Shown piece after piece: positions 8,405 through 30,924 of a stretch of DNA of 64,000 bases (position 1 is the stretch's first letter; each line of letters starts with the position of its first letter). Where the stretch lies: contig CAZHNO010000001.1 in NCBI GenBank assembly GCA_964534045.1, positions 1,786 to 65,785 on the forward strand, given 5' to 3'. The notes under the pieces are model-generated. The model had not been told where the DNA came from and did no database searches. It was given only the letters and a program-made list of their open reading frames with translations. This DNA is from an uncultured archaeon. GTDB taxonomy: Archaea > Iainarchaeota > Iainarchaeia > Iainarchaeales > JAAZKV01. Both the position numbers and the translations under genes were made by a program.

Positions 8405-8418
8405 TTTTCATTATTAAT

Positions 8419-14336: not shown

Positions 14337-15205
14337 ACACTCCAAATTTAAGTGGAGAGAAAAAGATAGCTGAAATTCTTAAAAAAAATAATATCAAATA
14401 TGAAACTAAAAAAAAGCTAATTCTTCATAAAGATTCAAAAAAATATAGAATTCCTGATTTTTATTTACCTGATTATAAATTAGCAATAGAATATTTTGGT
14501 AGTTGGCATAATGAAAAAAGCAAGAAAATGGAGAAGAAAGAAAGGGCAAGGTTTATGGAAAAAGTTGGGGCTTATGAAGAAAGTGGAATTGATTGTGTTT
14601 ATTTATATCCACAAGATTTAGAAAAAGCTGAAGAAAAAATTTTGAAAAAAATAGAACTTATTGAAACCCACAATAAAGCTGGCGAAATTGCTAGGCATAT
14701 TGTTACAAAAAAAGTTGTTGAAACTGAAAAAATTGAAACAAGAGAACCAATAATAATTAGAAAAGAAAAACCAATTTTTGGGGAAGAAACAAAAAAAATT
14801 AATTATCATTCAAGCAATAGTGAATATGAAGTTCTTAATTCTGAATTATTAAAAAAATTGATTGTTGGTTTGGGAATTACAGCAGTATTATTATTTTTAG
14901 CACAAACAATAATTGGAGTAATTCTTTTTGTAATGGGAAATCCTTTAACCAGTGAATTACATTTTCCAAACGATATTATGTTCACGCTATTTGCAATAAT
15001 CATTCCTTTATCAATAATTCTTTCAGGAATATATGCTTACAAAAAAAATCTTTCAAAAGGATTTATTTATGTTGCAATAATACTATTTATCTTCTACATA
15101 ATAACTCTTTTCTTTTTCGGAGATCCGTTAAATAGAGCAATAGTATTGTTAGTTGGAATGTTAGCAATAATTCCGGCTGAATATTATATGGTTACAAGTA
15201 ATTAA
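14333..15205 (+). CDS. Membrane protein with N-terminal Vsr/DUF559-like PD-(D/E)xK-fold domain (paralog of 58037..58930)
   Basis: YRIPDFYLPDYKLAIEYFGSWHNEK matches the DUF559/Vsr-like core (D...IE.DG.xH). The C-terminal 120 aa has 4 TM helices. Confidence 0.4.
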   Translation: MNTPNLSGEKKIAEILKKNNIKYETKKKLILHKDSKKYRIPDFYLPDYKLAIEYFGSWHNEKSKKMEKKERARFMEKVGAYEESGIDCVYLYPQDLEKAEEKILKKIELIETHNKAGEIARHIVTKKVVETEKIETREPIIIRKEKPIFGEETKKINYHSSNSEYEVLNSELLKKLIVGLGITAVLLFLAQTIIGVILFVMGNPLTSELHFPNDIMFTLFAIIIPLSIILSGIYAYKKNLSKGFIYVAIILFIFYIITLFFFGDPLNRAIVLLVGMLAIIPAEYYMVTSN

Positions 15206-18234: not shown

Positions 18235-19041
18235 TTATTTGATTATTTCATCCAATAACTTCTTTTCAATCGCCAGGTGCTTGTCAAATCTTTTTGAATC
18301 AATTTTAATTTTTTTATTATTGCTTTTTAAAAAAGTTACTTTCCTCTTAGAGTTTTTTTTATTTAAAGTATCTATAATTTGACTAATTTTTGGAGTATAT
18401 TCTATTGCATTATAAATTCCTTCGCCATTTTTTATTGCTTTAAGTATTATTTTTGCAGCATCTTTTACATCGGTAATCATCAAAGTTGAATCTTTCGCAA
18501 ATCTTAAAGTTTTGTGTTTTTTATATTCAGTAATTATTTTTTTAACTCTATTCTCACTAGATTTTTCACCAATAAGAGTTGGAAACCTAAGAATTACAAA
18601 TTCAAATCCAAACTTTTTACTATATTTTATTATTTTCGTTTCAGCAATAAGTTTTGACTTTGCATAATCAGATAAATTTTTTCCACGTGTTTTCTCGTTT
18701 AACTTAATGGGGATTTTTTCTCCATAAACCGAACAACTTGATGTAAAAATAAATTTTTTTATTTTGTTTTTAACACAAAATTGTAAAAGATTTTCTGTAC
18801 CTTCAGCATTAACCAAATAGTAATCCTTCAGATTTTTTGTATGATTAAGCCCTGCTAAATGAATCACAATATCAAAATTTTCTTCAATAATAATGTTTTT
18901 TGTCAAATCAACTTGTTTGATTCCTTTTGCTTTGTGTCTACTCAATGCGATAAATGGAATTTTTTCTTTCTTTAATAAATTTATAACTTCTTTTCCCAAG
19001 AAGCCTGACGCCCCAGTGACTAAAACTTTTTCTTTGCTCAT
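18235..19041 (-). CDS. NAD-dependent epimerase/dehydratase family protein (short SDR)
   Basis: VLVTGASGFLG N-terminal Rossmann motif; 268 aa. Confidence 0.6.
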   Translation of the reverse strand: MSKEKVLVTGASGFLGKEVINLLKKEKIPFIALSRHKAKGIKQVDLTKNIIIEENFDIVIHLAGLNHTKNLKDYYLVNAEGTENLLQFCVKNKIKKFIFTSSCSVYGEKIPIKLNEKTRGKNLSDYAKSKLIAETKIIKYSKKFGFEFVILRFPTLIGEKSSENRVKKIITEYKKHKTLRFAKDSTLMITDVKDAAKIILKAIKNGEGIYNAIEYTPKISQIIDTLNKKNSKRKVTFLKSNNKKIKIDSKRFDKHLAIEKKLLDEIIK

Positions 19042-19076
19042 AAAGAATTAAAAACATCATTAACGCTTATATAAAT

Positions 19077-20234
19077 ATGGAAAAACTAGCTTTTTTTGGT
19101 GGCAAACCCATTTTAAAAGAAAAACCATTAATTAGCCCAAACATTTCAAAAAGTGCTCCAAAACTAATTATTAAGGCAATCAAGGATGGGGGGTTATCAA
19201 ATTTTGAGGGCAGTGGATTTGTATATAAGTTTGAAACAGAATTTGCTAAATTTAATGACACTAAATATGCTGTTGCAACAAATTCAGGAACATCTGCGCT
19301 ACACACCGCTTTGGCAACTTTTTCATTAAGTCCAAAAGATGAAGTTATCATTCCAGCATATACTTTTGTTTCAGGGGGGTCAATTGTAATTCAAGAAAAC
19401 GCAAAACTTGTTTTTGCTGATATAGAAAAAGACACTTATTGCATTGATCCAAAAAGTATTGAAGAATGTATTACTAAAAATACAAAAGCTATTATGCCAG
19501 TTCATATTTATGGACATCCTGCAAAAATGAAACAAATTAATAAAATTGCAAAGAAATTTGATTTAAAAGTAATTGAAGATTGTGCTCAAGCACATGGTGC
19601 GAAGATTGGAAACAAAATGGTTGGTTCTTTTGGAGATGCAGGATGTTATAGTTTTGCAAAAACAAAAAATATGACAACTGGTGAAGGTGGAATAGTTGTA
19701 ACTAATAAAAAAGAAATATCTGAAGAAGCAAAAATAATTAGACAAAATGGAAAAATTACTTGGAAAATACACAAAAGATTAGGTTATAATTATCGAATGA
19801 CAGAAATGCAGGCTGCTTTAGGAATCAGTCAGCTTCATGAATTAAAAAAATTTAATAAACTTCGTGAAAAGAATGCACTAGTTTATTTTAAAAAACTTAA
19901 AAATCTTGGATTAGAATTACCAAAAATTAGTCAAAATATAACCCATGCATATTACAAGTTACCTATTCTCATGCCTAAAGAATTAACAGAAAAACGAGGA
20001 ATATTTGTTAAAGCATGTATTCAAGAAAATATGCCTATTGAAACAGGATATTCTATTTCTTTAAACAAAATTAATTTTTTATCAAGTCATTCAAGAAAGA
20101 CAGAATGTCCAGTTGCAGAAGATTTTGTAAAAAGAATAATTAATTTGCCTGTTGCACCTTGTTTATCTACGCAAAAAATAGAGTTAATTTGTGAAGGCTT
20201 AAGAAAAGTATTTAATGAAATTGATTCTCTATAA
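19077..20234 (+). CDS. DegT/DnrJ/EryC1/StrS-family PLP-dependent sugar aminotransferase
   Basis: 385 aa; family layout with conserved region DCAQAHGA...GD...SF...K (the PLP-lysine region). Confidence 0.75.
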   Translation: MEKLAFFGGKPILKEKPLISPNISKSAPKLIIKAIKDGGLSNFEGSGFVYKFETEFAKFNDTKYAVATNSGTSALHTALATFSLSPKDEVIIPAYTFVSGGSIVIQENAKLVFADIEKDTYCIDPKSIEECITKNTKAIMPVHIYGHPAKMKQINKIAKKFDLKVIEDCAQAHGAKIGNKMVGSFGDAGCYSFAKTKNMTTGEGGIVVTNKKEISEEAKIIRQNGKITWKIHKRLGYNYRMTEMQAALGISQLHELKKFNKLREKNALVYFKKLKNLGLELPKISQNITHAYYKLPILMPKELTEKRGIFVKACIQENMPIETGYSISLNKINFLSSHSRKTECPVAEDFVKRIINLPVAPCLSTQKIELICEGLRKVFNEIDSL

Positions 20235-20238
20235 TTAT

Positions 20239-20574
20239 ATGAAAAGCCTGGTCAAAGGAATAATTGCTTCTAAAGGTATTGCTGAAGGCACTTGTGTTGT
20301 TGTTAATTCATTAGATGACTTTGCAAAGGTTAGTGAAGGCCAAATTCTCGTCGTGAAAAATACTGACCCTTCATTTGTGATTCTTTTTTCAAAAGTTTCT
20401 GGAATTATAACAGAAATTGGTGGAATGTGTTCACACGCAGCAATAGTATCAAGAGAAATGGGTTTGCCATGTATTGTTGGCACTGGCAATGCAAGAGAAA
20501 TTCTCAAAGACGGAATGAAAATTGTTTTGAATGCAAATGAAGGAATGGTTTATGAATCAAACAAAGATGAATGA
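20239..20574 (+). CDS. Stand-alone PEP-utilising-enzyme mobile (swivelling phosphohistidine) domain protein
   Basis: GGMCSHAAIVSREMGLPCIVGTG, the signature of the PEP-utilisers phosphohistidine domain. Only about 110 aa, with no ATP-grasp or PEP-binding domains attached. Confidence 0.6.
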   Translation: MKSLVKGIIASKGIAEGTCVVVNSLDDFAKVSEGQILVVKNTDPSFVILFSKVSGIITEIGGMCSHAAIVSREMGLPCIVGTGNAREILKDGMKIVLNANEGMVYESNKDE

Positions 20575-21646
20575 TTTTTTTAATTCACTAAATTATGCAA
20601 TTGAAAAAACAGATAGTGGCACTTTTTGGCCAGGGGGCGGTGGACAAATAGGTTCACCATTTGTTGCAATTGATGCTCTTGCCTTACACAATCAATTGCT
20701 TGAATTAAAAAAAAATAAAAGTGCTTCTGAATTAACAAACTTTTTTTATAATCCTTCTGTGATTCGCTATGTTGTTGTTGGAAATTTTATAATTGGACTA
20801 AAAGTTTTAATCCGTGATAAAAAGATTTCTCTTGAGTCTGCAAAAGAATCTCTTGAATTTTTTTTAGATATACTTGATTCAAAAATGGATTCAGACCCTT
20901 TTTGTGTTACTGGAAAAAATAATTGGTTTAGCCAAAAAAAAGTTAATATATTAGTTCAAAATTTAACTTTTAATAGTGCAGATGAAAAAGAACAGACACT
21001 CATTTCAAGAATGGTTATAGCTCTAAATTCTCTTGTTTGGTCTTTTTATTATGATATTTATGTTGAAGCAGGTTTTGAATTCCATGGACCTTATAATATT
21101 GAATTTAATGGAAAAAAATATTCTCTTTTAATAAGAGATTATCATGACTTAAAACCAATTGACCTTTGGGAGAATGCTAAAAAAATTAGTAATCAGTCAG
21201 TTAAATTGTATTTACTTTACTCTAGAGTTGACATAAAGCTAGATTATTTTATGCATGAATTATCAGATGAACCATTGCGAAAGAACCTCGCATTTTATGC
21301 AATTGAATTAACTGATTCTGAAGGCAAAAAAAGTTTTGTTCAAGTTAATGATTGTATAGAAATTATTGAAGAAGTAGAAAAAACTACATTTGAACAAGTT
21401 AATTTTGTAAACAAGCTTGATACTATAGAAAAAATAAAAAAAGGAGCAATGATTTGTTTTTATCAACTCAAAAGTTTTCGTGAAAAAATTGGTATTGATT
21501 GGAAACCATCAAAAGAAGTTTTTGAAGCAATTGATACAAAAGGTTTAGAAAAATGGGAAAAATTTAAAGCAAGAGCAAATGCCATTAGCACTGGAACTGC
21601 AAATATTGATTGGAGTGCAAAATACGATTTAAACAAGCCCTTGTAA
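20567..21646 (+). CDS. Hypothetical protein (translationally coupled to PEP-utiliser domain gene)
   Basis: The ATG overlaps the upstream stop (atgaATGA). About 360 aa with no recognisable motif. Confidence 0.35.
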   Translation: MNDFFNSLNYAIEKTDSGTFWPGGGGQIGSPFVAIDALALHNQLLELKKNKSASELTNFFYNPSVIRYVVVGNFIIGLKVLIRDKKISLESAKESLEFFLDILDSKMDSDPFCVTGKNNWFSQKKVNILVQNLTFNSADEKEQTLISRMVIALNSLVWSFYYDIYVEAGFEFHGPYNIEFNGKKYSLLIRDYHDLKPIDLWENAKKISNQSVKLYLLYSRVDIKLDYFMHELSDEPLRKNLAFYAIELTDSEGKKSFVQVNDCIEIIEEVEKTTFEQVNFVNKLDTIEKIKKGAMICFYQLKSFREKIGIDWKPSKEVFEAIDTKGLEKWEKFKARANAISTGTANIDWSAKYDLNKPL

Positions 21647-22654
21647 TTATAAAACAACACTACTTGTTTCACACTTTCTCGCCATTTCAATAATTTTTTT
21701 AGTATCCATATCAATTGTATTTTTATATGATTTTGAGAGTTTGTTTCCATTTCTATCTTTTACAACTGGAGTTATTAGAGTTAGTGGTTCTTCAAAATCT
21801 GGTTCAAACTCTTTAAGTAGCAAAGAATTAACATTCACACTTCCCCCATTATAATGATCTCCCCCTCGAATACACAAATCTATTTTAAGCAATAAAAGTC
21901 TTGGAATCAACAAAGGCTTGTGATAAATCCAATAATCAAATTCTGTTATATTTTTTTCAAATGTTTTTCCACATTTTTTACACTCAAATAGTGTTGTTGA
22001 TTTATTGATTTTTGTTTTACCATTTGATTCTTTGCAAGCTGGACAAATTGCACCAGCATAGTGTGCCAGTTCAGGAATTATTTTTTCACCAGTTGCTTTT
22101 TTTATAATTTCAGCAATCTTTTGAGGTTGCTGAATAGCTATTTTTAAATATTTTTGAAAAACTTTTTCACCAAGCAATGATGAATTTCTCACAAACTCAA
22201 TTTTTATTTTAGGAAACTCTTTTTCAAACGCATTTTTCATTTCTTTTCTTATCAACTCTTCATAGTGATCAATTATCTTTTCATGACATTTACCACTATC
22301 TAGCAGATTTCCAATATTTGTTTTTTCACAAATTATATTTGACCCATAGGTTGGTTCTTCAGTATCAAGATAGTCCGCAATCTTTTTGTAATAATAATTT
22401 TTACCATCAAATTCAAGATAGGATAATTCATTTGGCTCAAAATCATTTAGTGATATAAAAATAGTAAACTCTGGTTCTGTCCCATTCTTTTTTAGTTGTT
22501 CTGCAAGTAAATAGGGATAAGCAATTAATGCCATTTTATTCCCTGCGTGAAAACCAAATGGCCTTATTCCAATATGAATTTTTTCTTTGCCAGTTAGTTT
22601 CTTTGAAATTTCTTTTAAGCCATCCAAATACAAGTATGTTTTTTGTTTCATCAA
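21647..22654 (-). CDS. Class-I lysyl-tRNA-synthetase-like catalytic domain protein (truncated, no anticodon-binding domain)
   Basis: GIRPFGFHAGN matches the LysRS-I HIGH-region (G.TPSG..H.GN). KLSKSYKN matches the KMSKS-type motif. Also present: DLCIRGGDH (D.EP.GKDH-like) and a zinc-ribbon insertion CPACK...CKKCG. Only 335 aa against about 520 aa for LysRS-I. Confidence 0.6.
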   Translation of the reverse strand: MMKQKTYLYLDGLKEISKKLTGKEKIHIGIRPFGFHAGNKMALIAYPYLLAEQLKKNGTEPEFTIFISLNDFEPNELSYLEFDGKNYYYKKIADYLDTEEPTYGSNIICEKTNIGNLLDSGKCHEKIIDHYEELIRKEMKNAFEKEFPKIKIEFVRNSSLLGEKVFQKYLKIAIQQPQKIAEIIKKATGEKIIPELAHYAGAICPACKESNGKTKINKSTTLFECKKCGKTFEKNITEFDYWIYHKPLLIPRLLLLKIDLCIRGGDHYNGGSVNVNSLLLKEFEPDFEEPLTLITPVVKDRNGNKLSKSYKNTIDMDTKKIIEMARKCETSSVVL

Positions 22655-23679
22655 TAATCAACTCTTGATAAAAATTTATTTGCTTGACAATTTATTGGAT
22701 CACAGGAATCACAAATTCCAGGTTTTCCAGCATTTTTCATTTTTTCTTTTCTATTTTTGCTTTCCCAAATGTGCTTCACCGAGTGTGTAAAAATATTCCC
22801 AAGTAAAAATTTATCCCCTTTATAGGGCGTGTTAGCGCATGGATAAACTGCACCTGTTGCATCAAGAAATAAAGTATATTTGGACACAGTACAATCTATA
22901 TTCTTATAAAAATTTTTTGTATAATTGCCTGCTAAAGTATTTTCCATGTCAGCTGGTTCACCAAAAACAAATGGATTTTCATGTCTCAATTTTGTGTTGG
23001 TTTTTGAAGCCATTTTCTTGATCATTGGAACAATCCTATCATTATAATCCTTAACCTGTGTTTCATTAAGAAATAAATTTTTATTTCCCCTAATTGGAAT
23101 TAAATTTAATTCATCAAACAATTTACCACCATATTCATCCATCAACTCATGAATGTGCTCATAATTCAAATTATTTACAACATAGTTTACGATAACCTTC
23201 TGATTTGGGGACTTTTTTTTAAGAAATTCTAAATTACCAATTATCTTTTCAAAACTTTTTATCCCCCTTATTCTATTATGAGTTTCTGCCCTAGAAGAAT
23301 CAATTGACACATGTATTTGCTTTGGTGAATACATCAGCACCCTATTTATTATTTCTCTTGACAAGGTAAATCCATTTGTTATAAACGAAAAATCCATCCC
23401 CAAATCTTTTGTCAACATCATTGTCTCAAAAAAATATGGATAGATTGTTGGTTCTCCACCAGTCAACCTTATTTCTTTTGTACCCAACTCTTTTGCATCA
23501 ATAACTGCATTTTTTATTTTTTCAAAAGTTAGACCAGAATCAGTTTTTTTCCAAAAATCACACATAATGCATCTTGAATTGCACCTATAGGATGGCCTAA
23601 TTATGAAAAGTAATGGTTTTGTTACGCCAGCTTTATCTAGTGATAACACTTCATTTTGCAGTAAATCATCCACTACCAA
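22651..23679 (-). CDS. Radical SAM enzyme with C-terminal SPASM-like Cys cluster
   Basis: CNSRCIMC (CxxxCxxC) near the N-terminus and GGEPT glycine-rich motif. The C-terminus carries CANTPYKGD...GICDSCDPINC, typical of SPASM/twitch auxiliary clusters. Confidence 0.75.
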   Translation of the reverse strand: MVVDDLLQNEVLSLDKAGVTKPLLFIIRPSYRCNSRCIMCDFWKKTDSGLTFEKIKNAVIDAKELGTKEIRLTGGEPTIYPYFFETMMLTKDLGMDFSFITNGFTLSREIINRVLMYSPKQIHVSIDSSRAETHNRIRGIKSFEKIIGNLEFLKKKSPNQKVIVNYVVNNLNYEHIHELMDEYGGKLFDELNLIPIRGNKNLFLNETQVKDYNDRIVPMIKKMASKTNTKLRHENPFVFGEPADMENTLAGNYTKNFYKNIDCTVSKYTLFLDATGAVYPCANTPYKGDKFLLGNIFTHSVKHIWESKNRKEKMKNAGKPGICDSCDPINCQANKFLSRVDY

Positions 23680-24628
23680 ACACCTCTTGAATTAATTTAT
23701 AATATTTCCCAGCATACTTATTTTCTTTAAACTTTTTTGGCAGAATCGAAAAGTAAAAACTTTTTGATTCTTTACATGCCTTTGAAAAGGCAAGGTTTAG
23801 AATATTTTTTGGTGTAATGAAAACCTTTTCTTTGGCAACAGAAGAGTACATTCGTTTTTTTCCAAATAAGTTTGGAGTTGGCAAATAGGCCAAGTGGAAC
23901 AGCCTTTTGTTTTTTGATATACGCCTTGCAGTTTGTACTGCCTTTACTTGCTGAATATTTTCTACCACTAGAATGGTTGGATTTTTTATCTGGGTTAGCT
24001 CTTCCAAAAAATCAGGGAGATAGGTTACCAAAAATCGCTTATGAAGATTTACTTTTGTTTTATCCAATTTTAAAAAGGCTTCTTTCGCCCGATGGTCATT
24101 ATTTCCAATATAATATAATGTATCAAGTTCTTGTTGAGTAACTTTTTTTTCTATATTTTTTACATATTTTTCAATAAGCATATTTACTCTCTTTTCTGAT
24201 GTGTCAATAATCTGTATTTCTTCATAGTCAAGCGATTTGCTGATATCAGAAATAATTTTTTCAAATACTTTTTTTGTTTCAGACCAACTTTTTCCACTTC
24301 TCAATTCTTCTTCTTTTATACTTAGATAAATAAATGCTGGAACCTTAATTTCTTTTGCAAGCAAAATAAGATTTGTTAAATCATTAATACTTTCTATTGT
24401 AATAGAATCAAAATTATCCGTTATACATGGCCCACCAATTACTATTGTATTTTTGCTAAATTTTTTTGGAATTCCTTTTGTCACTCCTATGAATTGCCTT
24501 TGTTTCAATGTTTCCAAATCTAGCTCAGTTTTTTTTATTGAATCAAGCCCATATCGCTCATTAATTTTAGCACTTCCTTCCCAATACCACTCTCTCAAGA
24601 AGAAATCTAAACTATTAATTCTGTACAT
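23666..24628 (-). CDS. Hypothetical protein (operon member)
   Basis: 320 aa, overlaps both neighbours, no motif recognised. Confidence 0.35.
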   Translation of the reverse strand: MYRINSLDFFLREWYWEGSAKINERYGLDSIKKTELDLETLKQRQFIGVTKGIPKKFSKNTIVIGGPCITDNFDSITIESINDLTNLILLAKEIKVPAFIYLSIKEEELRSGKSWSETKKVFEKIISDISKSLDYEEIQIIDTSEKRVNMLIEKYVKNIEKKVTQQELDTLYYIGNNDHRAKEAFLKLDKTKVNLHKRFLVTYLPDFLEELTQIKNPTILVVENIQQVKAVQTARRISKNKRLFHLAYLPTPNLFGKKRMYSSVAKEKVFITPKNILNLAFSKACKESKSFYFSILPKKFKENKYAGKYYKLIQEVFGSG

Positions 24629-25056
24629 ATTTCCCCTTCCAAAATTTTTGGTATTTCTGTTTCATCCCTAAACCTAATTATTTTTGAATCAGTAACTGAT
24701 GAAAGCCCATTAACCAGTGGAGAATATTCAGTTTCTTCATGAAGCAATAAAATTATTCTTTTGTTTAAAGCAGATGCCCACCCTAATTCTACTTGCACGC
24801 CTCCAGAAGGCGGATTTCCAACAATGGCTAAAAATAAATCACAATCTTGTATTTCTTTGAAATCTTCTTTTGTGCACACCAATGGGTGCATCAATTCTTT
24901 TCCAAATTTTTCTCTTTTATGCGCATTTCTTACAACATGTCCTTTTTGTTCAAGTTGTTCAATTAGGTTAATAATAAAATTAACTTTGTGAGTATGAACT
25001 ATACTTGTATTTTTATTAATGTCCTGAGTAAATGGCGCACCCAAAAATATTTGCAT
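24607..25056 (-). CDS. Nucleoside 2-deoxyribosyltransferase-like protein
   Basis: 149 aa; DLFLAIVGNPPSGGVQVELGWASA resembles the NDT-family catalytic-Glu segment (D.GT.FE.G-type). Confidence 0.45.
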   Translation of the reverse strand: MQIFLGAPFTQDINKNTSIVHTHKVNFIINLIEQLEQKGHVVRNAHKREKFGKELMHPLVCTKEDFKEIQDCDLFLAIVGNPPSGGVQVELGWASALNKRIILLLHEETEYSPLVNGLSSVTDSKIIRFRDETEIPKILEGEICTELIV

Positions 25057-25057
25057 T

Positions 25058-26203
25058 TTAAACTCCTCCTAAAAGTTTATTTATTTCTTTTACTATTGCT
25101 GGCAGTCCATTTCCACCAAGTTTGTTAAAATATTTTTTTTGTTTTCTAGTAATTTTTTCTAGTTCTGCAGAATCTTTTTGAACAGAATCTAAAATATAAT
25201 TAGCGAGTTTATCCCAGCTTTTTCTATCACCATCAAATCTATTAACACATGCAAGTACTTTTTTTATTCCAGAAAGCTCATCTTCATTTTCATCAATTTG
25301 CACATCATAATAATCACTCCAGTTTAGTGAATTCTGGGCAAGACCTTGGTTATTAAATCCCCTAAGATTCCAAAATTGACTATAGTTTTGTGGTGGCAAA
25401 AAAAACACTGGAGTTCCAACGTTAAATGCTTCAAAACTTGTTGTCAACCCAGGTGAAGAAATTAACATTTTTGCTGATGCCAATTCTGCTATAAATTCAT
25501 CATGCCCTAAAAAGTCATAAGTTATTTTAGTGGATTTGTTTTTCCTCTGAAGCTCATCCATTACTTTTCCATTTCCAAGACAAAGAATTTTATCAAAATC
25601 TAATTTGCCTTCAATCTCGTCTAAGATTTTTGCTATGGCAAAAGGATAATTTGAGTTTTCTCCGATTTTTACTGATGCTGATTCCATTCCACCAAAATTT
25701 ATTATTAATTTATTTGATTTCTTTACTTTTGGATAATCTTTTACTATTGGGCCAACCAATCGTGGGTTCTTTATTTTATCAAAATAATTAGCCAACTGTT
25801 TTTCCACACCTTCAAAATTTTGTATAAAATAAATTTCAGAATTAAGTATTTCATCAGGAATTGTTTCCCACATCCAAAATAGACTATCTATTTGAATTTG
25901 TGGTTTTCCAATCCCATGCACAAACTTTGCAGATACTGGGTTCATTACATTTACAAAAATATCTGAGGTTTTTATGCGCATTTCCTGTTCTTTCAGAGAA
26001 TCTATGCTTTCCGTATTACATTGTATAAGTGAATCAATACGACTTTTGTTTGCAAGTTGTTGGCTAGTGCCCGAAACCATCATTGAGACACGATTGTCTT
26101 TACCAAGTTGCTCAGAAACAGTAAGCATTTTTGATACGGGCCCAAAACAAAAAGGAACTGCATCACATAGGATTGTGTGCATTTCACATGAAGACATAAA
26201 CAT
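25058..26203 (-). CDS. GT-B-fold glycosyltransferase-like protein (tentative)
   Basis: 381 aa. The C-terminal half has a G-rich nucleotide-sugar-binding-like segment (SSPGLTTSFEAFNVGTPVFFLP) as in MGT/GT28-type enzymes. Confidence 0.4.
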   Translation of the reverse strand: MFMSSCEMHTILCDAVPFCFGPVSKMLTVSEQLGKDNRVSMMVSGTSQQLANKSRIDSLIQCNTESIDSLKEQEMRIKTSDIFVNVMNPVSAKFVHGIGKPQIQIDSLFWMWETIPDEILNSEIYFIQNFEGVEKQLANYFDKIKNPRLVGPIVKDYPKVKKSNKLIINFGGMESASVKIGENSNYPFAIAKILDEIEGKLDFDKILCLGNGKVMDELQRKNKSTKITYDFLGHDEFIAELASAKMLISSPGLTTSFEAFNVGTPVFFLPPQNYSQFWNLRGFNNQGLAQNSLNWSDYYDVQIDENEDELSGIKKVLACVNRFDGDRKSWDKLANYILDSVQKDSAELEKITRKQKKYFNKLGGNGLPAIVKEINKLLGGV

Positions 26204-26278
26204 TTATAAGCCCTATAATATATATTGTTTGTTATTATGCTTTGAACAAAGGCATATGATTATTTAATATGTGATTAA

Positions 26279-27547
26279 ATGGATATTAATAAGTATTTTG
26301 TGCCCCTGAGTAGCCATCGCCTTTGGTGGGAAAAAACCTTCCTATCAAAAATTCAGCCAAATCGAAGAATTAATGTTTATTATTCCCCAAATGCATCCGG
26401 ATTACACTACTTTTTTATTTCACAATTATGGTTTTTATCAAAACTCTCAGCTCTTGGCGATGTACACTACTACATAATTTTAAATGATCAGGTTTTTAAT
26501 AGCCCAAAAAATATACTTACAAAGGACGAAGCAAAAAAAGAAAGATTAAATGAAACTACTGCTGCTTTGAGTTTTTTTGGAGTAAACCCAGAAAAAATTC
26601 ATTGTTACTTTTATTCAGATTGTGTAAATAAATTGTTTTCTAAAAATCCCAGAACCCCATTTATTTTCTCAAAAAGCCTTAGACTTATTTCACCAAAAAT
26701 ACTTAATCTTCCAAAAATTAATATTGAATATGAATATTTAGGAGATGAACATAGTTACCCGTTATCTTACTACTTACCAAAAGTAATGGACTTACTTATT
26801 ACACAAGATTTTCATAACTTTTTTCCAGAAGATATTGATGGAAAAATTGACGTTTTCGTTTCAAGTTGGTTTGGAATGTCCTTAATATCAAAGCTTCATC
26901 CATTATTTGTAGAAAAGGGAATTGTTACCGATTTAAAACCAATTGTTGTTTCAACTAAAAAAGTGCCTTTTTTTGGACACAATAAAAGTTACTATCCAAG
27001 ACATATCGCACCAAGCATCAACATGAGTGTTGAAGATATTTATGAAGCCATAATTATTTACAATGTTAAGGAAGCACATATGGAAAGCTTACTTAAAGAC
27101 ATTTTAATACCAAACCTTGACAACGAGTTTTTCTTACCAAGCTCACCGGGAGAAGTAATAAAATCATCAAAAATAACTGACTTTAAAAAATTAAAATTTG
27201 AAAAAAAAGCATTATCCTTAGCTTACTCTTTCAATGAATTTTTTAAAAAAATAAATTCCTCCATTAAAGAATCTCCTAAAAAAAATTATTTGCTTATTGA
27301 AAACAATTCTGATTTGGAAGATATTAGCATATTATTCAAGTCTCCACTAGCTCTTCTTGTTCTAAACGAATGTGATGGAAAAACTATTTCAGAAATTTCT
27401 AAAAAGCTTGATAAACATCAACCAAATATAAGTAAAATAATTTCTAGTTTGAAACGTGCTGGGCTTGTTGAAAGTAATAATAAGGGCCATTTATTTGTAC
27501 AAGTTAACACAATAAAAGTAAATTTATCAAATATACTAAAAAAGTAG
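26279..27547 (+). CDS. Degenerate TyrRS/TrpRS-like Rossmann domain fused to C-terminal winged-helix DNA-binding domain
   Basis: N-terminal VYYSPNASGLHYFF...KLSALGDVHYYIILNDQ aligns with this contig's TyrRS (AYDGFEPSGQMHIAQG...KMIDAGFTFKMWVADW). The HIGH motif glycine is lost. The C-terminal LVLNECDGKTISEISKKLDKHQPNISKIISSLKRAGLV is ArsR/MarR-like. Confidence 0.4.
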   Translation: MDINKYFVPLSSHRLWWEKTFLSKIQPNRRINVYYSPNASGLHYFFISQLWFLSKLSALGDVHYYIILNDQVFNSPKNILTKDEAKKERLNETTAALSFFGVNPEKIHCYFYSDCVNKLFSKNPRTPFIFSKSLRLISPKILNLPKINIEYEYLGDEHSYPLSYYLPKVMDLLITQDFHNFFPEDIDGKIDVFVSSWFGMSLISKLHPLFVEKGIVTDLKPIVVSTKKVPFFGHNKSYYPRHIAPSINMSVEDIYEAIIIYNVKEAHMESLLKDILIPNLDNEFFLPSSPGEVIKSSKITDFKKLKFEKKALSLAYSFNEFFKKINSSIKESPKKNYLLIENNSDLEDISILFKSPLALLVLNECDGKTISEISKKLDKHQPNISKIISSLKRAGLVESNNKGHLFVQVNTIKVNLSNILKK

Positions 27548-27551
27548 TTTT

Positions 27552-28043
27552 CTACAATTTTTTTATTTCTAAATACTTTGCAATCTTTGATCTTAAAAAA
27601 GGGGTTAATGATTTGGCTACTGCAAGCTGTTCATCCCTTGGAAGTCTTTCAAATGCCTTTATCATATTTGCTTGCGCTGTTTGTGGATTAAAAATTCTTT
27701 TTTTTAATTCAGAAGTATTAACTGCTGGGCGAATAACATCTTTCTTTTGAGGAATAAATTGAGCCCCTTGCTTTTTTCTTTCTGCTTTTTCTAGTTTTGC
27801 ATGCTCTCTTCTTTGAGCATCCAGCTCATGAAGTTCAACCATAGTTAATTTGCCTGACATTAACCCTTGAATCATTGAAGATATTTTTGTTACTTCATGA
27901 CTAGCATTTGCTTCCTGTGCAACCCTTAATCTTTTAGAAAGATGTTGATAAACAGGATGTTCCCAATATTTTTTTGGATCAAACCTTGGAATTCCATTAG
28001 GCACTTCTTTCATTTTTGGCTTTTGCTCTCTTTTTTTAGGCAT
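27552..28043 (-). CDS. Basic hypothetical protein
   Basis: 163 aa, Lys/Arg-rich (MPKKREQKPK...). Visibly more G+C-rich codon usage than its neighbours. Confidence 0.35.
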   Translation of the reverse strand: MPKKREQKPKMKEVPNGIPRFDPKKYWEHPVYQHLSKRLRVAQEANASHEVTKISSMIQGLMSGKLTMVELHELDAQRREHAKLEKAERKKQGAQFIPQKKDVIRPAVNTSELKKRIFNPQTAQANMIKAFERLPRDEQLAVAKSLTPFLRSKIAKYLEIKKL

Positions 28044-28382: not shown

Positions 28383-28547
28383 ATGGCTAAAGTAATAAGA
28401 GCAACTCCTACTTTGAGAGGGGAAGAAGCAAATCTTTTCATTAAAGATATTCTAAAAAATGACAATGCAAGATTATCAAGACACCAAAAAAAGCTGTTTA
28501 GTTTTATTGAAAAAGCCCCTTTTTCTCTAGACGATTTCTCTCTTTAA
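28383..28547 (+). CDS. Small ORF (54 aa) downstream of a TTTTTAAATA box
   Basis: The ATG lies about 30 nt after TTTTTAAATA. Not in the ORF track because it is shorter than 60 aa. Its 3' end overlaps the convergent GNAT gene. Confidence 0.2.
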   Translation: MAKVIRATPTLRGEEANLFIKDILKNDNARLSRHQKKLFSFIEKAPFSLDDFSL

Positions 28548-29115
28548 ACTCATTAATATACGGCTGGACATCCAAATACATTGAAATGTAAGATGCATTA
28601 GCTTTTCTTTCTTTTAAAACTTTAAACCCTAATTTTTTATAAAAATGAATTGGCTTTTCAGATTCTTTCAAATTGCTTTCATTCTTTGCTTCTACCGTCA
28701 ATATTCTACAACCGGCTTTTCTGTTAATAAAAAACACTTGTTTTATTGCATTGCCAATAATCATTGTGCCCAATCTTTTCCTGACAACTCTTTCATCCAC
28801 AGCCATTCTTGCAATTTTTAGTGCAGGAATTGCCTTGTAAGGTATTCCATCTTCTTTGAATTTCTGCTTATCACTACCCCCTAAATGAATGGAATCAGTG
28901 CAAAGAGTAACATAACCAAGAATTTGCTTTTCATTTTTTGAAAACCATAAACTTGTTTTTCCCACTGATTTATTTTGTTGTGTTAAAGCATCCTCTTTTA
29001 GAAAATCATTCAAATCTTTTATCCCACATTTAAAATCTTCAATAAACTTTGAAGTAACTTCAGTAAGAGGCAAAATTTCAATATCTTCAACAGGATAAAT
29101 TTCTTTCATTAACAT
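28504..29115 (-). CDS. GNAT-family N-acetyltransferase
   Basis: IARMAVDERVVRKRLGTMIIGNAI acetyl-CoA-binding (R/Q-x-x-G-x-G/A) region; 203 aa. Confidence 0.55.
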   Translation of the reverse strand: MLMKEIYPVEDIEILPLTEVTSKFIEDFKCGIKDLNDFLKEDALTQQNKSVGKTSLWFSKNEKQILGYVTLCTDSIHLGGSDKQKFKEDGIPYKAIPALKIARMAVDERVVRKRLGTMIIGNAIKQVFFINRKAGCRILTVEAKNESNLKESEKPIHFYKKLGFKVLKERKANASYISMYLDVQPYINEFKERNRLEKKGLFQ

Positions 29116-29208
29116 AACTAAATTATTAAAATCGAGTTTTTAAAACTTAATAGAGCATCATGCCACTCAAAATTATTTAATTTCAGTTGGTGACAATTTG
29201 TAACCAAC

Positions 29209-30357
29209 TCAATCGTTTTCCCATTTCCCCAATTTAACCTGAAAACCTTTTTCTTTTTCCACAAATTTCTCTATTTTTTTATTACCTTTTTTTACTTCAG
29301 AGCCTAACTTCAAATAATTCAAATTAGAGTATTCTTCATACAATTTGTGTTTTTTTAAGTATTTTTCTAGTTTTTCCTTGTCCCATTTCAGTTTTTCTAT
29401 TTCTTTTATTGAAGCCTTCATTTTAGAGCCAAAAACAACGTTTATTTTGTGTTGTTTTGAATACTCAAACAAATCCTTTTGTAATTCTTCTTTTCTTTGT
29501 TTTAATTCATCTTCTTTTTCTTTTATTTCAACTAATTCATTAACTATTTTTACTCCTTCATCTTTCTTGAATTCTTTTATTGTTTTTTCTTCTAAATCTG
29601 CCTCGTGTTTGAAAGAAGGGCATAAGTGCTTGTAAACACAATAATCACATAATTTTGTTATGTTTGGAGGAAAGTCTTTACAATTAGTAATTTCATTGAT
29701 TTTTCCTATTGTTTCTTTTCTTATTTGTTTTAATTGTTCATAGGTTCTCGTGCTTTTTACTTCTTTATTAAATTTTAGCATATGCCACAACAATATTACT
29801 TTTTTTGCATCAGGATACTTTTGTTTAACCCAGAGAGAATACATTGCTAATTGCCTATCCTCATCCGCTTCTTTTTGCTCTTTCATTCTTGAATTTGTTT
29901 TATAATCACAAACAAAATAAGTGTCTCCTTTACAAGCCAACCTATCTATCCTAATTGAATAATTATTTGTTCCTAATTTTAAAAAATCACTTGTTTCTAA
30001 ACCAAGAATAGTATACTGCTCAAAAGGCTTGTAAGTATCATAATAATCTTCTAAAAATTTTTTTCCCTGAGTTTTGTAATTATTTGCTGTGTATTCTTTT
30101 TTAGTTATCTTTACTTCCTTTTCCTTTTCAAAATTTTTTTTCCACACTTCCTCATAATACTCTAACAATTCCTCTTTACTCAAATCCTTCCCATGCAACT
30201 TATCCCTATACAACTTCTCCAAAACCTCATGAACACAAGAACCCATAAACGCCTCAATAGTAGTCTCAACATCCACCCTAACCCTATCAACATACCTAAA
30301 CTTATAAGCCAACTTACAATTCTCAAACAACGAAATCTTTGAATGCGAGAAGTTCAT
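29209..30357 (-). CDS. Cas4-like PD-(D/E)xK nuclease with Fe-S cysteine cluster and coiled-coil C-terminal extension
   Basis: N-terminal Cys (FENCKLAYKFRY), IRIDRL..., VCDYKTN (D-x-K), and the C-x2-C-x5-C triad CDYCVYKHLC. Followed by about 120 aa of K/E-rich coiled coil. Confidence 0.6.
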   Translation of the reverse strand: MNFSHSKISLFENCKLAYKFRYVDRVRVDVETTIEAFMGSCVHEVLEKLYRDKLHGKDLSKEELLEYYEEVWKKNFEKEKEVKITKKEYTANNYKTQGKKFLEDYYDTYKPFEQYTILGLETSDFLKLGTNNYSIRIDRLACKGDTYFVCDYKTNSRMKEQKEADEDRQLAMYSLWVKQKYPDAKKVILLWHMLKFNKEVKSTRTYEQLKQIRKETIGKINEITNCKDFPPNITKLCDYCVYKHLCPSFKHEADLEEKTIKEFKKDEGVKIVNELVEIKEKEDELKQRKEELQKDLFEYSKQHKINVVFGSKMKASIKEIEKLKWDKEKLEKYLKKHKLYEEYSNLNYLKLGSEVKKGNKKIEKFVEKEKGFQVKLGKWEND

Positions 30358-30924
30358 TTATTTTTCACCCAAAGGAATTGCTTTTCTTATTTTACAATAA
30401 TGGTTTTCAGCTCTTATTTTAATTCCAATTTCTTTTGAAAAGAATTCAAATTCTCTTATTTTAGCATCTTTTTTTACTTTTTGTTCAATATCCTTTGGCA
30501 AGTATAATATTTTTGAAGAATGTGGATTATATAAGTCTAAAATAAATTTCCCTTGTTTTTCTGAATATTTTCCAATTTCTTTAACAATTTCATTGTGTAA
30601 TTTTTGTAATTCCTCATTTTTTTCTATTCTAATAACTAAATGAGATAAGTCTCCCGCTGAAAAAAGAGTTAATTCTTTTGATTTAATTTTAATTGGCTTG
30701 TATTTTTTTGCAATTTTTCTTAACATAGCTTCAATTTCATCTTTATGCTCAAAACAATTCCCCATTGAAAGCAAGGTTATGTGTGGAACATCATAATAAA
30801 TTCCATCATTAGGATGTTTGTTTTGACACTTTTTTGAATATTTTTTATGAAGCTCTTTTATCTCAGAATTAAGCTCTGAATACAATGGTTCTGGGATTGT
30901 CAAAACAATAGCAGTAGTCTCCAT
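30358..30924 (-). CDS. 2H phosphoesterase (LigT / 2'-5' RNA ligase-like)
   Basis: Two H-x-[TS]-x motifs (VPHITLL and NPHSSKIL) at LigT-like spacing; 188 aa. Start abuts the stop of the upstream nuclease gene. Confidence 0.45.
   Translation of the reverse strand: METTAIVLTIPEPLYSELNSEIKELHKKYSKKCQNKHPNDGIYYDVPHITLLSMGNCFEHKDEIEAMLRKIAKKYKPIKIKSKELTLFSAGDLSHLVIRIEKNEELQKLHNEIVKEIGKYSEKQGKFILDLYNPHSSKILYLPKDIEQKVKKDAKIREFEFFSKEIGIKIRAENHYCKIRKAIPLGEK

Follow-up and report, generated by a model that had tools for sequence, protein, structure and literature searches.

A candidate archaeal gene cluster for an aminoacylated amino-sugar cytosine nucleoside, with two tRNA synthetase-like proteins

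Results

The window analyzed here is a 64,000-nucleotide stretch of a contig from an uncultured archaeon (Iainarchaeota). On its minus strand, from 21647 to 26203, lie five overlapping or abutting open reading frames, and reading them from the sequence again reproduced all the coordinates and junctions of an earlier, sequence-only reading. Together with their neighbors they form the following set.

18235-19041, minus strand: SDR / NAD-dependent epimerase-dehydratase family protein, 268 aa (PF01370, 2.8e-33)
19077-20234, plus strand: DegT/DnrJ/EryC1 PLP sugar aminotransferase, counterpart of BlsH/MilD, 385 aa (PF01041, 2.6e-102)
20215-20574, plus strand: stand-alone PEP-utiliser mobile (swivelling phospho-His) domain (PF00391, 9.8e-27)
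20531-21646, plus strand: unk371, fold without assignment, 371 aa, translationally coupled to the swivel domain
21647-22654, minus strand: truncated class I LysRS paralogue, 335 aa (PF01921, 1IRX, motifs)
22651-23679, minus strand: radical SAM (rSAM) protein with SPASM/twitch C-terminal domain, BlsE/MilG-like, 342 aa (PF04055, PF13186, BlsE matches)
23666-24628, minus strand: unk320, class Ic aaRS (TrpRS/TyrRS)-like Rossmann fold, 320 aa
24607-25056, minus strand: NDT149, predicted CMP N-glycosidase of the MilB/BlsM/BcmB family, 149 aa (PDB matches, identity to a bls-cluster protein)
25058-26203, minus strand: GT-B glycosyltransferase (GT) related to cytosylglucuronate (CGA) synthase BlsD/MilC, 381 aa (TIGR04467 and BlsD profile match)
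26204-26278, no strand: putative divergent promoter region shared by the GT operon and the wHTH gene; contains a CACATAT...CATATG dyad and a TATA-like box (AATATATATT)
26279-27547, plus strand: wHTH protein, 422 aa, whose first 330 or so residues are an uncharacterised domain and whose C-terminus is an ArsR/Csa3-like winged helix
27552-28043, minus strand: Lys/Arg-rich basic protein, 163 aa, which travels with the cluster

The junctions bear out the proposal of one tightly coupled operon. A single nucleotide separates the GT stop from the NDT149 start (25058/25056), with GGAGG close upstream, and NDT149 overlaps unk320 by 22 nt (24607-24628), its partner's ATG being preceded by GGAAGGGG. The overlap between unk320 and rSAM is 14 nt from a TTG start or 8 nt from an in-frame GTG start; that between rSAM and the LysRS-like gene is 4 nt from a TTG start or 1 nt (TGATG) from an ATG start, the latter being the start in NCBI protein P0001 (334 aa). 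At the other end, the LysRS-like gene and the plus-strand unk371 gene meet back to back at 21646/21647. The zero-spacer tail-to-tail junction described earlier is thus real, but the plus-strand genes are not a separate neighboring operon: in four other archaeal loci (L007, L095, L112, L114) the DegT, PEP-utiliser and unk371 genes run in the same direction as the five, and are therefore part of the same system.

The functional unit is larger than the five-gene block and extends over roughly 18235-28043, about eleven genes. The sequence-only reading had called for a check of neighborhood conservation, which turned out positive: the SDR, DegT, swivel-domain, unk371, wHTH and 163-aa genes recur together with the five in about nine other archaeal contigs, in shuffled order, so that the grouping goes beyond chance. 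All ten or eleven genes are found together in L007, L012, L095, L112 and L114, with order and strands rearranged; L001 has most of them, and one archaeal relative, L001/L092, is without the NDT gene. Co-occurrence was counted over metagenomic loci of at least 9 kb (n=38). There the LysRS-like gene is accompanied by a CGA-synthase-like GT in 37 of 38 loci, by an NDT-fold gene in 32 and by DegT, which is found in every archaeal-type locus, in 31. SDR homologues adjoin the cluster in L001, L006, L007 and L012, and a second DegT-family gene takes the place of the SDR in L095, L112 and L114.

The wHTH gene is paired divergently with the GT gene in the window and in L007, L012, L095 and L112; the copy in L114 is truncated at the contig end. 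Both the dyad and the TATA-like box are found again between the corresponding genes of L007, L012, L112 and L114, where the flanking wHTH proteins are only 28-41% identical to that of the window, which points to 26204-26278 as a putative operator or promoter. The protein matches HTH_5 (9e-5), TrmB (1.2e-4) and the Csa3 model (6.5e-7), while searches with its N-terminal domain gave no significant match; it is putatively a ligand-sensing regulator of the cluster. Homologues of the 163-aa protein, for which Pfam, PADLOC and PDB yielded no match, sit at the cluster edge in varied arrangements (L001/L092, L007, L012/L093, L095, L096, L112, L114).

The most secure functional assignment is that of NDT149, first described simply as NDT-like. 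Its PDB matches (4JEN, 7.5e-30; MilB 4JEM, 1.7e-29; BlsM 5VTO, 7.7e-26), its 41% identity with the NDT protein from the Kitasatospora bls cluster (1.7e-31), and its conserved NAHxRE and ExGWAS motifs argue strongly for a CMP N-glycosidase of the MilB/BlsM/BcmB type that would be the source of free cytosine. The GT, correctly recognized as GT-B-like, has CGA synthase as its sole real curated match (TIGR04467, 8.5e-21 and 74.5 bits against a cut-off of 300; second-best family 8e-4). Its family profile matches annotated BlsD at 4e-20 over nearly the full length, and TIGR04467 is the best or only match for every GT relative checked. We propose it as a candidate for the enzyme that forms the N-glycoside between base and sugar. 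These two proteins speak against a pathway for nucleotide sugars or cell-surface glycans, or for an aminoacyl-amino-sugar metabolite of the mycothiol/bacillithiol kind rather than a nucleoside antibiotic, in which neither would have a role. Nor did the cluster show a polyprenyl-phosphate transferase, flippase or oligosaccharyltransferase, and the GT4 match is far under its cut-off (107 vs 274 bits), the archaeal version being without GT4. We regard such a pathway as improbable.

The rSAM/SPASM assignment is upheld by PF04055 (2.7e-26) and PF13186 (2.1e-10). The closest solved relative is BlsE (7VOB, 2.4e-13), and annotated blsE from Kitasatospora is 24% identical over 276 aa (2.5e-15). Homologues from Paenibacillus and Anoxybacillus link the two: the Paenibacillus L047 protein matches the window rSAM at 1.5e-40 and has BlsE as its own top NCBIfam match (6e-48). 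Against the BlsE model itself the window protein reaches 70 bits (cut-off 400), and the viperin, mycofactocin, MoaA and pVip models score equally or slightly better. Because of these scores, and because both GT and rSAM are far below their equivalog cut-offs, a point of difference from the blasticidin-type clusters, it is uncertain which sugar is donated and which radical chemistry is performed.

The same matches (NF038283, 4.5e-22; pVip, 2.2e-25) could suggest an antiviral defense module making a viperin-like chain-terminating or otherwise toxic nucleotide analogue, with which the Csa3-like winged helix (6.5e-7) and the AbiEii and transposase genes adjoining a truncated cluster copy in L006 would agree. 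However, the viperin score of 78.5 is below the cut-off of 180, the protein has a SPASM domain, and viperins trail BlsE in the PDB search (2.6e-6). No further component of the cluster matches PADLOC, whose viperin models are described only with or without kinases, GT, DegT and aaRS-like ligases not being among their features. This makes a defense role very unlikely. Still less probable are the tRNA or rRNA hypermodification and the RiPP matured by a SPASM enzyme that had been among the outputs first considered, and for which no support was found. The LysRS-like family, with 159 matches in 1.84 billion representatives, is much too scarce and scattered to serve a core RNA modification; no RNA-binding domain was detected; a search of the divergent intergenic region for a precursor-peptide ORF found none; and enzymes handling nucleosides and sugars adjoin the rSAM gene in every locus.

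The original LysRS-like label is confirmed by matches to PF01921 (7.9e-17) and, with the family profile, to class I LysRS of P. horikoshii (1IRX, 1.4e-6), in an alignment that stops at KMSKS, some 25 residues before the protein ends; TIGR00467 gives only 28 bits (cut-off 147.55). Shared with class I LysRS are the catalytic Rossmann core, the HIGH-type (HAGN) and KMSKS (KLSKS) motifs and the four-cysteine CxxC...CxxC ribbon, and H36/G38/N39, C204/C207/C225/C228, G264/D266/H267 and S307/K308 are invariant in the family. Unlike class I LysRS, the protein has 335 instead of about 520 aa, no anticodon-binding domain was found in it, and its family always occurs within a nucleoside/sugar gene cluster. 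GluQRS is a comparable truncated aaRS paralogue, likewise without this domain. Relatives on other archaeal contigs are 35-73% identical to the window protein, and the domain also occurs fused to an APH kinase (P0047) or to an alpha/beta hydrolase. We propose that it acts as an ATP-dependent, amino-acid-activating amide ligase. Its tRNA independence is inferred solely from the missing anticodon-binding domain.

unk320 has no HIGH motif left, and at the KMSKS position it carries a conserved G-x-x-R-M-Y-S-S. Cyclodipeptide synthases, which are class Ic aaRS-like and use aminoacyl-tRNA, have in common with it the TrpRS/TyrRS-derived fold and the loss of HIGH, and we propose unk320 as a second aminoacyl-transfer or ligase enzyme. 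Non-homologous proteins fill the aminoacyl slot elsewhere: a FemAB-like Acetyltransf_6 protein in Paenibacillus and CPR locus L157, an ATP-grasp ligase in actinomycetes. It is conceivable, though unlikely, that the same scaffold is made with tRNA, the LysRS-like protein charging or using one, or both proteins being aminoacyl-tRNA-dependent transferases in the manner of BlsK/MilH, Fem or cyclodipeptide synthases. Against this, the LysRS-like family keeps the HxGN and KMSKS motifs of adenylate formation while lacking the anticodon-binding domain, and is dissimilar to the protein in the BlsK position.

Homologues of the swivel domain (109-116 aa) are always encoded immediately upstream of an unk371 homologue. 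Its start is likely Met9 (about 20239), where alignments to homologues begin, and that of unk371 probably Met8 (about 20552), since NCBI protein P0033 has 364 aa. An ATP-binding partner for the swivel domain is not present in the cluster; unk371 is presumed to be the substrate-binding or catalytic partner for phosphoryl transfer. A phosphorylation step is suggested by the non-homologous kinases that occupy the same place in related clusters, namely APH (CPR, Paenibacillus), a PEP-utiliser+PPDK_N protein (P. faecalis) and the APH-LysRS-like fusion (P0047).

Discussion

The combination of genes had been thought to match no described pathway. However, NDT149, GT, rSAM and the neighboring DegT correspond one-to-one to BlsM, BlsD, BlsE and BlsH (MilB, MilC, MilG and MilD), the core of the blasticidin S, mildiomycin and arginomycin type of pathway in actinomycetes, and the operon logic is the same. 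Roles of MilB, MilC, MilD and MilG (PMC11784345) and of BlsD and BlsE (PMC3715490) have been described. The reference for our comparison was a PGAP-annotated bls cluster on a plasmid of Kitasatospora sp. NBC_00039 (L171), whose DegT (BlsH) is 24% identical to that of the window (1.2e-19); the top matches of the latter are of the PseC/LegC type. BlsG, BlsI, BlsK, BlsL and BlsF of this cluster are absent or unrelated in the archaeal one. The archaeal cluster lacks an arginine 2,3-aminomutase, an ATP-grasp ligase, a BlsK/MilH-type transferase, BlsF, a guanidino-methyltransferase and an M1 peptidase. It has instead two class I aaRS-fold proteins, the split swivel-His module with unk371, an SDR and the new wHTH protein. 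In other words, a blasticidin-like core appears in a small-genome archaeon, with two tRNA-synthetase-like enzymes where peptide-coupling enzymes are normally used.

Together, our data suggest, with moderate confidence, that the cluster most likely builds a cytosine-based aminoacyl or peptidyl amino-sugar nucleoside in which the aaRS paralogues serve as amide ligases; of the outputs first envisaged, an aminoacylated nucleoside is the one that the evidence favors. We would expect a relative of the blasticidin S / mildiomycin / gougerotin scaffold that is probably a translation inhibitor. By homology, NDT149 would, with good support, hydrolyze CMP to free cytosine. The GT may then join cytosine to a UDP-sugar, probably UDP-glucuronate though the sugar is uncertain, to give a pyranosyl cytosine nucleoside, whose sugar the BlsE-like enzyme may alter by radical chemistry, for example decarboxylation or dehydration. 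An amino group, probably at C4', may be introduced by DegT with the SDR, a candidate for C4' oxidation or nucleotide-sugar tailoring. The LysRS-like enzyme would form an amino acid adenylate and ligate it to the amine without tRNA, as MshC does. More speculatively, unk320 might add or handle a further aminoacyl unit, perhaps drawn from aminoacyl-tRNA as in cyclodipeptide synthases, and the swivel-His domain and unk371 might transfer a phosphate to the product or to an intermediate, either as self-protection or for activation. The wHTH protein would control the divergent promoters. MshC (mycothiol) and BshC (bacillithiol) are aaRS-like enzymes that join an amino acid to an amino sugar, but the parallel lies only in how they work. 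Their origin or resemblance is to CysRS, not to LysRS-I or TrpRS/TyrRS, and they have no sequence-level relationship to the window proteins.

The host is an archaeon with a GC content of about 28-30%, unlike the actinomycete hosts of bls clusters. Antibiotic pathways are not usually met in genomes as small as this one, which counts against our main reading, as does the missing NDT gene of L001/L092.

The closest GT and rSAM homologues outside the archaeal-type cluster come from uncharacterised CGA-type clusters of Paenibacillus and Anoxybacillus (L015, L023, L047/48/52, L060, L088), with GT matches of 1e-36 to 5e-55 by phmmer and 2e-54 to 2e-70 by profile, and rSAM matches down to 4e-42. These clusters share NDT, DegT and a kinase (APH(3') or PEP-utiliser+PPDK_N), some also an unk320 homologue, but have no LysRS-like gene, the FemAB-like protein taking the aminoacyl slot. 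Bacillus circulans makes bagougeramines, which are of the gougerotin type.

A sister version of the cluster is widespread in CPR bacteria. Its NDT-fold protein belongs to a different subfamily, and the base may therefore not be cytosine. Nearly always the sister cluster adjoins a ribosome-protection-like ABC-F gene; the median distance to the LysRS-like gene is 1.8 kb over 40 CPR loci, which fall into 27 clusters at 70% identity (median pairwise identity 45%). The Kitasatospora bls cluster likewise has an ABC-F-like gene at its side, whereas the archaeal cluster of the window is without one. These ABC-F neighbors speak for translation as the target of the product. The CPR protein may be a housekeeping one; its best match is NF000355, at 338-371 bits just short of the cut-off of 380, and it also matches the TlrC/CarA/OleB producer model, in likeness to the ARE-type ABC-F ribosome-protection proteins of antibiotic producer clusters.

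Gene content and junctions

In the sequence, the five overlapping minus-strand open reading frames are present exactly as the sequence-only reading had described them. The same holds for the tail-to-tail end without spacer, where the LysRS-like gene and the plus-strand gene for a 371-aa protein meet at 21646/21647. The wider cluster comprises the following genes.

Genes of the cluster, in window coordinates
18235-19041, SDR
19077-20234, plus strand, DegT-family sugar aminotransferase
20215-20574, plus strand, swivel-His domain of PEP-utiliser type
20531-21646, plus strand, 371-aa protein
21647-22654, minus strand, LysRS-like protein of 335 aa
22651-23679, minus strand, radical SAM (rSAM) protein
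23666-24628, minus strand, 320-aa protein
24607-25056, minus strand, 149-aa NDT-like protein
25058-26203, minus strand, glycosyltransferase (GT) GT381
26279-27547, plus strand, wHTH protein
27552-28043, Lys/Arg-rich protein of 163 aa

A gap of 1 nt separates the GT and NDT genes, and the NDT gene overlaps that of the 320-aa protein by 22 nt. The overlap between the 320-aa and rSAM genes is 14 nt with a TTG start and 8 nt with a GTG start, and that between the rSAM and LysRS-like genes is 4 nt with TTG and 1 nt with ATG, as in NCBI protein P0001. The window is AT-rich (about 28-30% GC). Its archaeal markers are an AMP-phosphorylase-like gene of archaeal type and a diphthamide-synthase domain; the contig of the closest relative has NMD3, deoxyhypusine synthase and a beta-CASP RNase. 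Archaeal origin of the window has good support. Scans for bacterial-type promoters and terminators gave matches at chance level and are uninformative for an archaeon.

Extent of the cluster in archaea

Conservation of the neighbourhood, which had been proposed as a check, is found across the archaeal loci: homologues of the cluster genes lie together in L001, L006, L007, L012, L095, L112 and L114. L007 (44% identity) has the genes for GT, NDT, 320-aa protein, rSAM, LysRS-like protein, DegT, PEP-utiliser and 371-aa protein on a single strand in this order, with the wHTH gene divergent upstream and the 163-aa and SDR genes nearby. L012, from a GTDB archaeon MAG, encodes eleven of the eleven proteins in a different order and orientation; L095, L112 and L114 show a further gene order, with a second DegT-family gene replacing the SDR; and L001 and L006 share the convergent arrangement of the window. 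As gene content is conserved while gene order is shuffled, this is strong evidence for one functional system that is larger than five genes and extends from about 18235 to 28043. The genes downstream of it at 28504-30924, encoding a GNAT acetyltransferase, a PD-(D/E)XK nuclease and a LigT-like 2'-5' RNA ligase, were considered as members and left out, since they are not conserved beside the cluster in other loci. The archaeal copy in L006 is truncated (942-2421): only a 75-aa SPASM fragment lies upstream of the LysRS-like gene, and an AbiEii-family gene and a DDE transposase adjoin it.

The wHTH gene is divergently paired with the GT operon, and the intergenic region shares between loci a CACATAT-N8-10-(C/A)ATATG dyad and a TATA-like box, AATATATATT, as candidate operator and archaeal TATA element. 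In the window these 75 bp carry the promoter-like motifs and have no ORF, so that no precursor-peptide gene for a RiPP was found there, and there is no space for one inside the operon, as its genes overlap. A precursor gene at a distance is possible. The earlier suggestion of a RiPP-like product finds no positive evidence, the neighbours of the rSAM gene being nucleoside and sugar enzymes in all loci.

Elements shared between archaeal loci
Divergent intergenic region with dyad and box: window 26204-26278; L007 3368-3462; L012 7358-7427; L112 3957-4007; L114 838-923
Gene for the 163-aa Lys/Arg-rich protein or its homologues, at the cluster edge: window 27552-28043; L007 10640-11131; L012 11161-11655; L095 13385-13918; L112 12415-12912; L114 9347-9856

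The 163-aa protein has no Pfam, PADLOC or PDB match. Across the archaeal loci its gene occurs in different arrangements and nearly always lies at the cluster edge; the product may act in immunity or be associated with the ribosome. The neighbouring gene in L007 and L095 encodes a DRG-type GTPase (MMR_HSR1 and TGS domains). For the large N-terminal domain of the wHTH protein, profile-profile comparisons were not significant and PDB profile searches found the wHTH alone, so that a third aaRS-like domain there is an unproven hint.

Relation to the blasticidin S and mildiomycin pathways

With the NDT protein as tblastn query against plasmids, a reference cluster of blasticidin S type, annotated by PGAP, was found on a plasmid of Kitasatospora sp. 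NBC_00039 (L171). It contains genes for an ABC protein, CGA synthase, BlsE, BlsF, BlsG, DegT, a carboxylate-amine ligase, an MFS transporter, a hypothetical protein in the position of BlsK, a methyltransferase, NDT and an M1 peptidase. Four window proteins resemble proteins of this cluster: the NDT-like protein BlsM (41% identity, 1.7e-31), GT381 BlsD (BLAST 6e-15; family profile 4e-20, nearly full length, about 23% identity), the rSAM BlsE (2.5e-15 over 276 residues) and DegT BlsH (1.2e-19). BlsF, BlsG, BlsI, the BlsK-position protein and BlsL have no counterpart among the window proteins. In the mildiomycin pathway, MilB frees (hydroxymethyl)cytosine from (HM-)CMP, MilC joins (hydroxymethyl)cytosine to UDP-glucuronate, a transaminase role is proposed for MilD and that of a radical SAM decarboxylase for MilG, and MilH is a BlsK-like tRNA-dependent aminoacyltransferase (PMC11784345; PMC3715490; PMC12710036). 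The matches to L171, taken with these roles, indicate that the core of the gene combination belongs to a described pathway. The claim that the combination was undescribed therefore fails for the core and stands for the side-chain part, as the window cluster lacks the blasticidin side-chain machinery (arginine 2,3-aminomutase, ATP-grasp ligase and BlsK/MilH transferase).

The closest PDB matches of the 149-aa protein are BcmB (4JEN, 7.5e-30), MilB (4JEM, 1.7e-29) and BlsM (5VTO, 7.7e-26), and true deoxyribosyltransferases reach only about 1e-6; with the NAHxRE and ExGWAS motifs of the catalytic region kept, it is a predicted member of the CMP N-glycosidase family. For GT381, the sole meaningful curated match is TIGR04467, hydroxymethylcytosylglucuronate/cytosylglucuronate synthase (8.5e-21, the next family at 8e-4), with 74.5 bits against a cut-off of 300. 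It is by sequence a homologue of BlsD whose donor and acceptor are only putative. DegT is assigned through PF01041 (2.6e-102), and its gene lies inside the cluster at every archaeal locus.

The rSAM has the CxxxCxxC motif (C33-x3-C37-x2-C40) and matches PF04055 (2.7e-26) and, at residues 263-327, the SPASM domain PF13186 (2.1e-10). Its NCBIfam matches form a flat list, in which BlsE (2e-19) stands alongside viperin, mycofactocin, AhbD and MoaA models; against TIGR04466 it scores 70 bits (cut-off 400), and other models rank above. A viperin-like defence role would draw on sub-threshold matches of this one protein: it scores 78.5 bits against the viperin model NF038283 (cut-off 180), over residues 32-231 only, and PADLOC matches are limited to the rSAM (pVip) and the wHTH protein. 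However, the SPASM domain speaks against this role, as does the comparison with solved structures, in which BlsE is clearly best (2.4e-13, viperins 2.6e-6). A transitive link to BlsE runs via the rSAMs of L047 and L015, two of the Paenibacillus and Anoxybacillus loci.

Homology shows that a putative CMP hydrolase acts together with a predicted sugar aminotransferase and with relatives of BlsD (the GT) and BlsE (the rSAM). An alternative pathway leading to a glycan or a thiol-like metabolite would need neither the CMP hydrolase nor the CGA-synthase-like GT. We lean towards reading the cluster as a blasticidin-like aminoacyl-nucleoside pathway.

Proteins related to aminoacyl-tRNA synthetases

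The LysRS-like protein matches PF01921 (7.9e-17), and a profile of its family (25 sequences) finds Pyrococcus horikoshii LysRS (1IRX, 1.4e-6), with residues 90-289 only of the 523-aa chain aligned. HIGH- and KMSKS-type motifs are present (HAGN at 36-39, KLSKS at 305-309); in the family, H36, G38, N39, S307 and K308 are invariant, as are the H-x-G-N, G-x-D-H and (K)-M-S-K-S motifs together with four cysteines. The protein stops about 25 residues past KMSKS and thus lacks the part of LysRS-I that binds the anticodon, about half of that enzyme; it falls below the TIGR00467 equivalog cut-off (28.1 bits, cut-off 147.55). By sequence it is a truncated class I LysRS paralogue and not a LysRS. Homologues are rare, with 26 clusters in 5.8 billion proteins and 159 matches at E <= 1e-3 in 1.84 billion representatives. 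Nothing positive speaks for the earlier idea of a tRNA hypermodification, a core function for which the family is too rare. The short matches of the second tier are metagenomic and named "hypothetical" or "lysyl-tRNA synthetase class I"; a look-up by name found no actinomycete proteins among them. We also considered whether the protein is a known BlsK-type part, on the premise that BlsK might be LysRS-like, and rejected this, the 626-aa protein in the BlsK position of L171 showing no similarity.

Natural fusions combine the LysRS-like domain with an APH kinase (P0047, 652 aa) and with an Abhydrolase_3 esterase of the alpha/beta hydrolase fold (P0098, 619 aa), and locus L005 has a GT4-APH fusion. 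In two further relatives, P0045 and P0048, the N-terminus is extended by 200-240 aa that have no Pfam match.

The 320-aa protein has no family match, and PF00579, which was looked for, is absent. A model predicted from six sequences (pLDDT 68, pTM 0.73, core blocks 85-93) gives it a class Ic (TrpRS/TyrRS) Rossmann fold, with MshC and BshC as structural neighbours in the underlying fold search. The HIGH position reads GGPCITD, without a His-containing motif; at the KMSKS position, an invariant G-x-x-R-M-Y-S-S leaves the RMYSS remnant alone conserved. Its profile matches TyrRS in the PDB weakly (E about 0.8). With the LysRS paralogue, the operon therefore encodes two proteins of class I aaRS fold. 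As a BlsF counterpart the 320-aa protein was rejected, being without similarity to BlsF of L171. The 371-aa and 320-aa families are extremely rare (12 and 6 clusters), and their sources, where named, are archaeal MAGs. The predicted fold of the 371-aa protein has no structural match, and its sequence is unrelated to the N-terminal 400 aa of the PEP-utiliser/PPDK_N protein of P. faecalis.

Relatives outside the archaeal clusters

Paenibacillus and Anoxybacillus genomes contain clusters of GT, NDT, rSAM and DegT genes, and supply the closest homologues of the window GT outside the archaeal-type cluster (phmmer 1e-36 to 5e-55, profile to 2e-70). Their rSAMs are clearly BlsE-like (318 bits for L015; 164 bits, by a wide margin, for L047), and that of L047 matches the window rSAM at 1.5e-40. 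Some of these clusters add a homologue of the 320-aa protein, an APH(3') kinase, a HAD phosphatase and a FemAB-like protein, and that of P. faecalis includes a PEP-utiliser+PPDK_N protein.

The LysRS-like gene is common in CPR bacteria (Staskawiczbacteria, Daviesbacteria and PBP-containing contigs), and a metagenome scan found 109 relatives. In the 38 loci that span 9 kb or more, its partners are a CGA-synthase-like GT (37 loci), an NDT-fold protein (32), DegT (31), ABC-F (32), APH (25), GT4 (24) and a methyltransferase (23). The CPR GT is 25% identical to that of the window, with TIGR04467 as its sole match; the CPR NDT-fold protein belongs to a different subfamily from MilB. In 40 CPR loci, among L003, L004, L009 and L097-L170, the ABC-F and LysRS-like genes are a median of 1.8 kb apart, a link that spans 27 clusters at 70% identity (median pairwise identity 45%). 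Its best model is the ribosomal-protection-like NF000355, with 338-371 bits, below the cut-off of 380. Next to the blasticidin-type cluster of Kitasatospora there is likewise an ABC-F-like gene (L171 1865-3505).

MilB-type relatives were found in Woesearchaeota, Nanoarchaeota and Iainarchaeota MAGs, which makes it plausible that the window is of DPANN affiliation. In DPANN/Altiarchaeota MAGs (L016, L028, L029, L033, L037, L038, L040, L046), the gene for a MilB-type CMP hydrolase lies in several cases beside a radical SAM gene, whose product matches the window rSAM at 1e-11 to 1e-17 (L029, 2e-6); L016 (Iainarchaeum) has the hydrolase without rSAM. No GT, DegT or LysRS-like gene was found within 10 kb of the hydrolase in these MAGs, and the pair looks like a different cytosine-related system. 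The NDT-LysRS-like pair has a third context in locus L020 of Candidatus Daviesbacteria (641-11475). There the pair, with an NDT of MilB type, lies among four radical SAM genes and genes for a HEAT-repeat protein, a GTPase, an Asp/Glu racemase and a methyltransferase, without GT or DegT.

A model for the pathway

Together, these comparisons suggest a model in which cytosine would be freed and then N-glycosylated with a UDP-hexuronate or related sugar. The cytosine glycoside would be remodelled by the radical enzyme, then oxidised and transaminated, and the resulting amine would be acylated. Acylation would most likely fall to the LysRS paralogue, acting in an MshC-like mode, as it keeps the adenylate-forming motifs and is missing the tRNA anticodon-binding domain. 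MshC ligates cysteine to an amino sugar. The main alternative is a tRNA-dependent version of the same pathway, which differs in this acylation step alone. More speculatively, the 320-aa protein of TrpRS/TyrRS fold without HIGH motif might add a second residue, perhaps from aminoacyl-tRNA as cyclodipeptide synthases do.

In related clusters, non-homologous enzymes (APH, PEP-utiliser+PPDK_N) occupy one "kinase slot", which suggests that the swivel-His domain and the 371-aa protein could transfer phosphate to an intermediate or to the product. Support for this step is weak, since the cluster contains no ATP-binding partner for the swivel-His domain and the fold of the 371-aa protein is without match. 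The known relatives of the scaffold and the association with ABC-F suggest that the product may be a translation inhibitor, and the nearly constant presence of an ABC-F gene nearby in CPR suggests that its target would be the ribosome.

A more far-reaching reading is tentative and, taken as a whole, rather doubtful. It holds jointly that small-genome, probably episymbiotic DPANN-like archaea and many CPR bacteria make new ribosome-targeting aminoacyl-nucleosides, that the truncated LysRS-I and the TrpRS/TyrRS-fold protein are tRNA-independent peptide couplers, that a third degenerate aaRS copy is perhaps the sensor domain of the regulator, and that a new-fold partner of the swivel-His domain phosphorylates the product. 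On this reading, Archaea would have their first pathway to a nucleoside antibiotic, and ultra-small symbionts a candidate means of acting on hosts or competitors.

Significance

Cytosylglucuronate-based nucleoside antibiotics (blasticidin S, mildiomycin, gougerotin, arginomycin) come from actinomycetes and a few Bacillus, and CPR bacteria and Archaea are thought to have little secondary metabolism. If our reading is true, the scaffold pathway reaches Archaea and CPR bacteria. Peptide coupling would have been reinvented with tRNA-synthetase paralogues, with two additions to the small set of aaRS-like ligases (MshC, BshC, GluQRS, cyclodipeptide synthases), and two very rare families, the 371-aa and the 163-aa basic proteins, would gain a testable function. 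The pathway would also be a source of new enzymes for aminoacyl-nucleoside analogues.

The scaffold part is of an already known kind. New features are the hosts (archaea and CPR bacteria), two class I aaRS paralogues in place of the ATP-grasp/BlsK-type couplers, a swivel-His module that is split and has a partner of unknown fold, the large uncharacterised domain of the wHTH protein, and the travelling 163-aa protein. A search of the papers available found none of these features described, and no paper tying CPR or archaea to a blasticidin/mildiomycin-type pathway.

Other features of the window

Beside the cluster, at 16248-18164, lies a gene for a DEAD-box helicase whose C-terminal tail, about 270 aa long, consists nearly entirely of Ser/Gly/Arg/Tyr repeats (RGG/SGR-like low complexity). 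A 290-aa protein (14333-15205) matches a PvuRts1I-like N-terminal domain at E 1.1e-3, a sub-cut-off value that may be chance; PvuRts1I-like restriction endonucleases are a 5-hydroxymethylcytosine-dependent family. Further away are a 1309-aa open reading frame without Pfam match (46884-50813) and a gene (55110-57170) for a 686-aa fusion of a glutamine amidotransferase/asparagine-synthase-like part with a Diphthami_syn_2 diphthamide-synthase domain.
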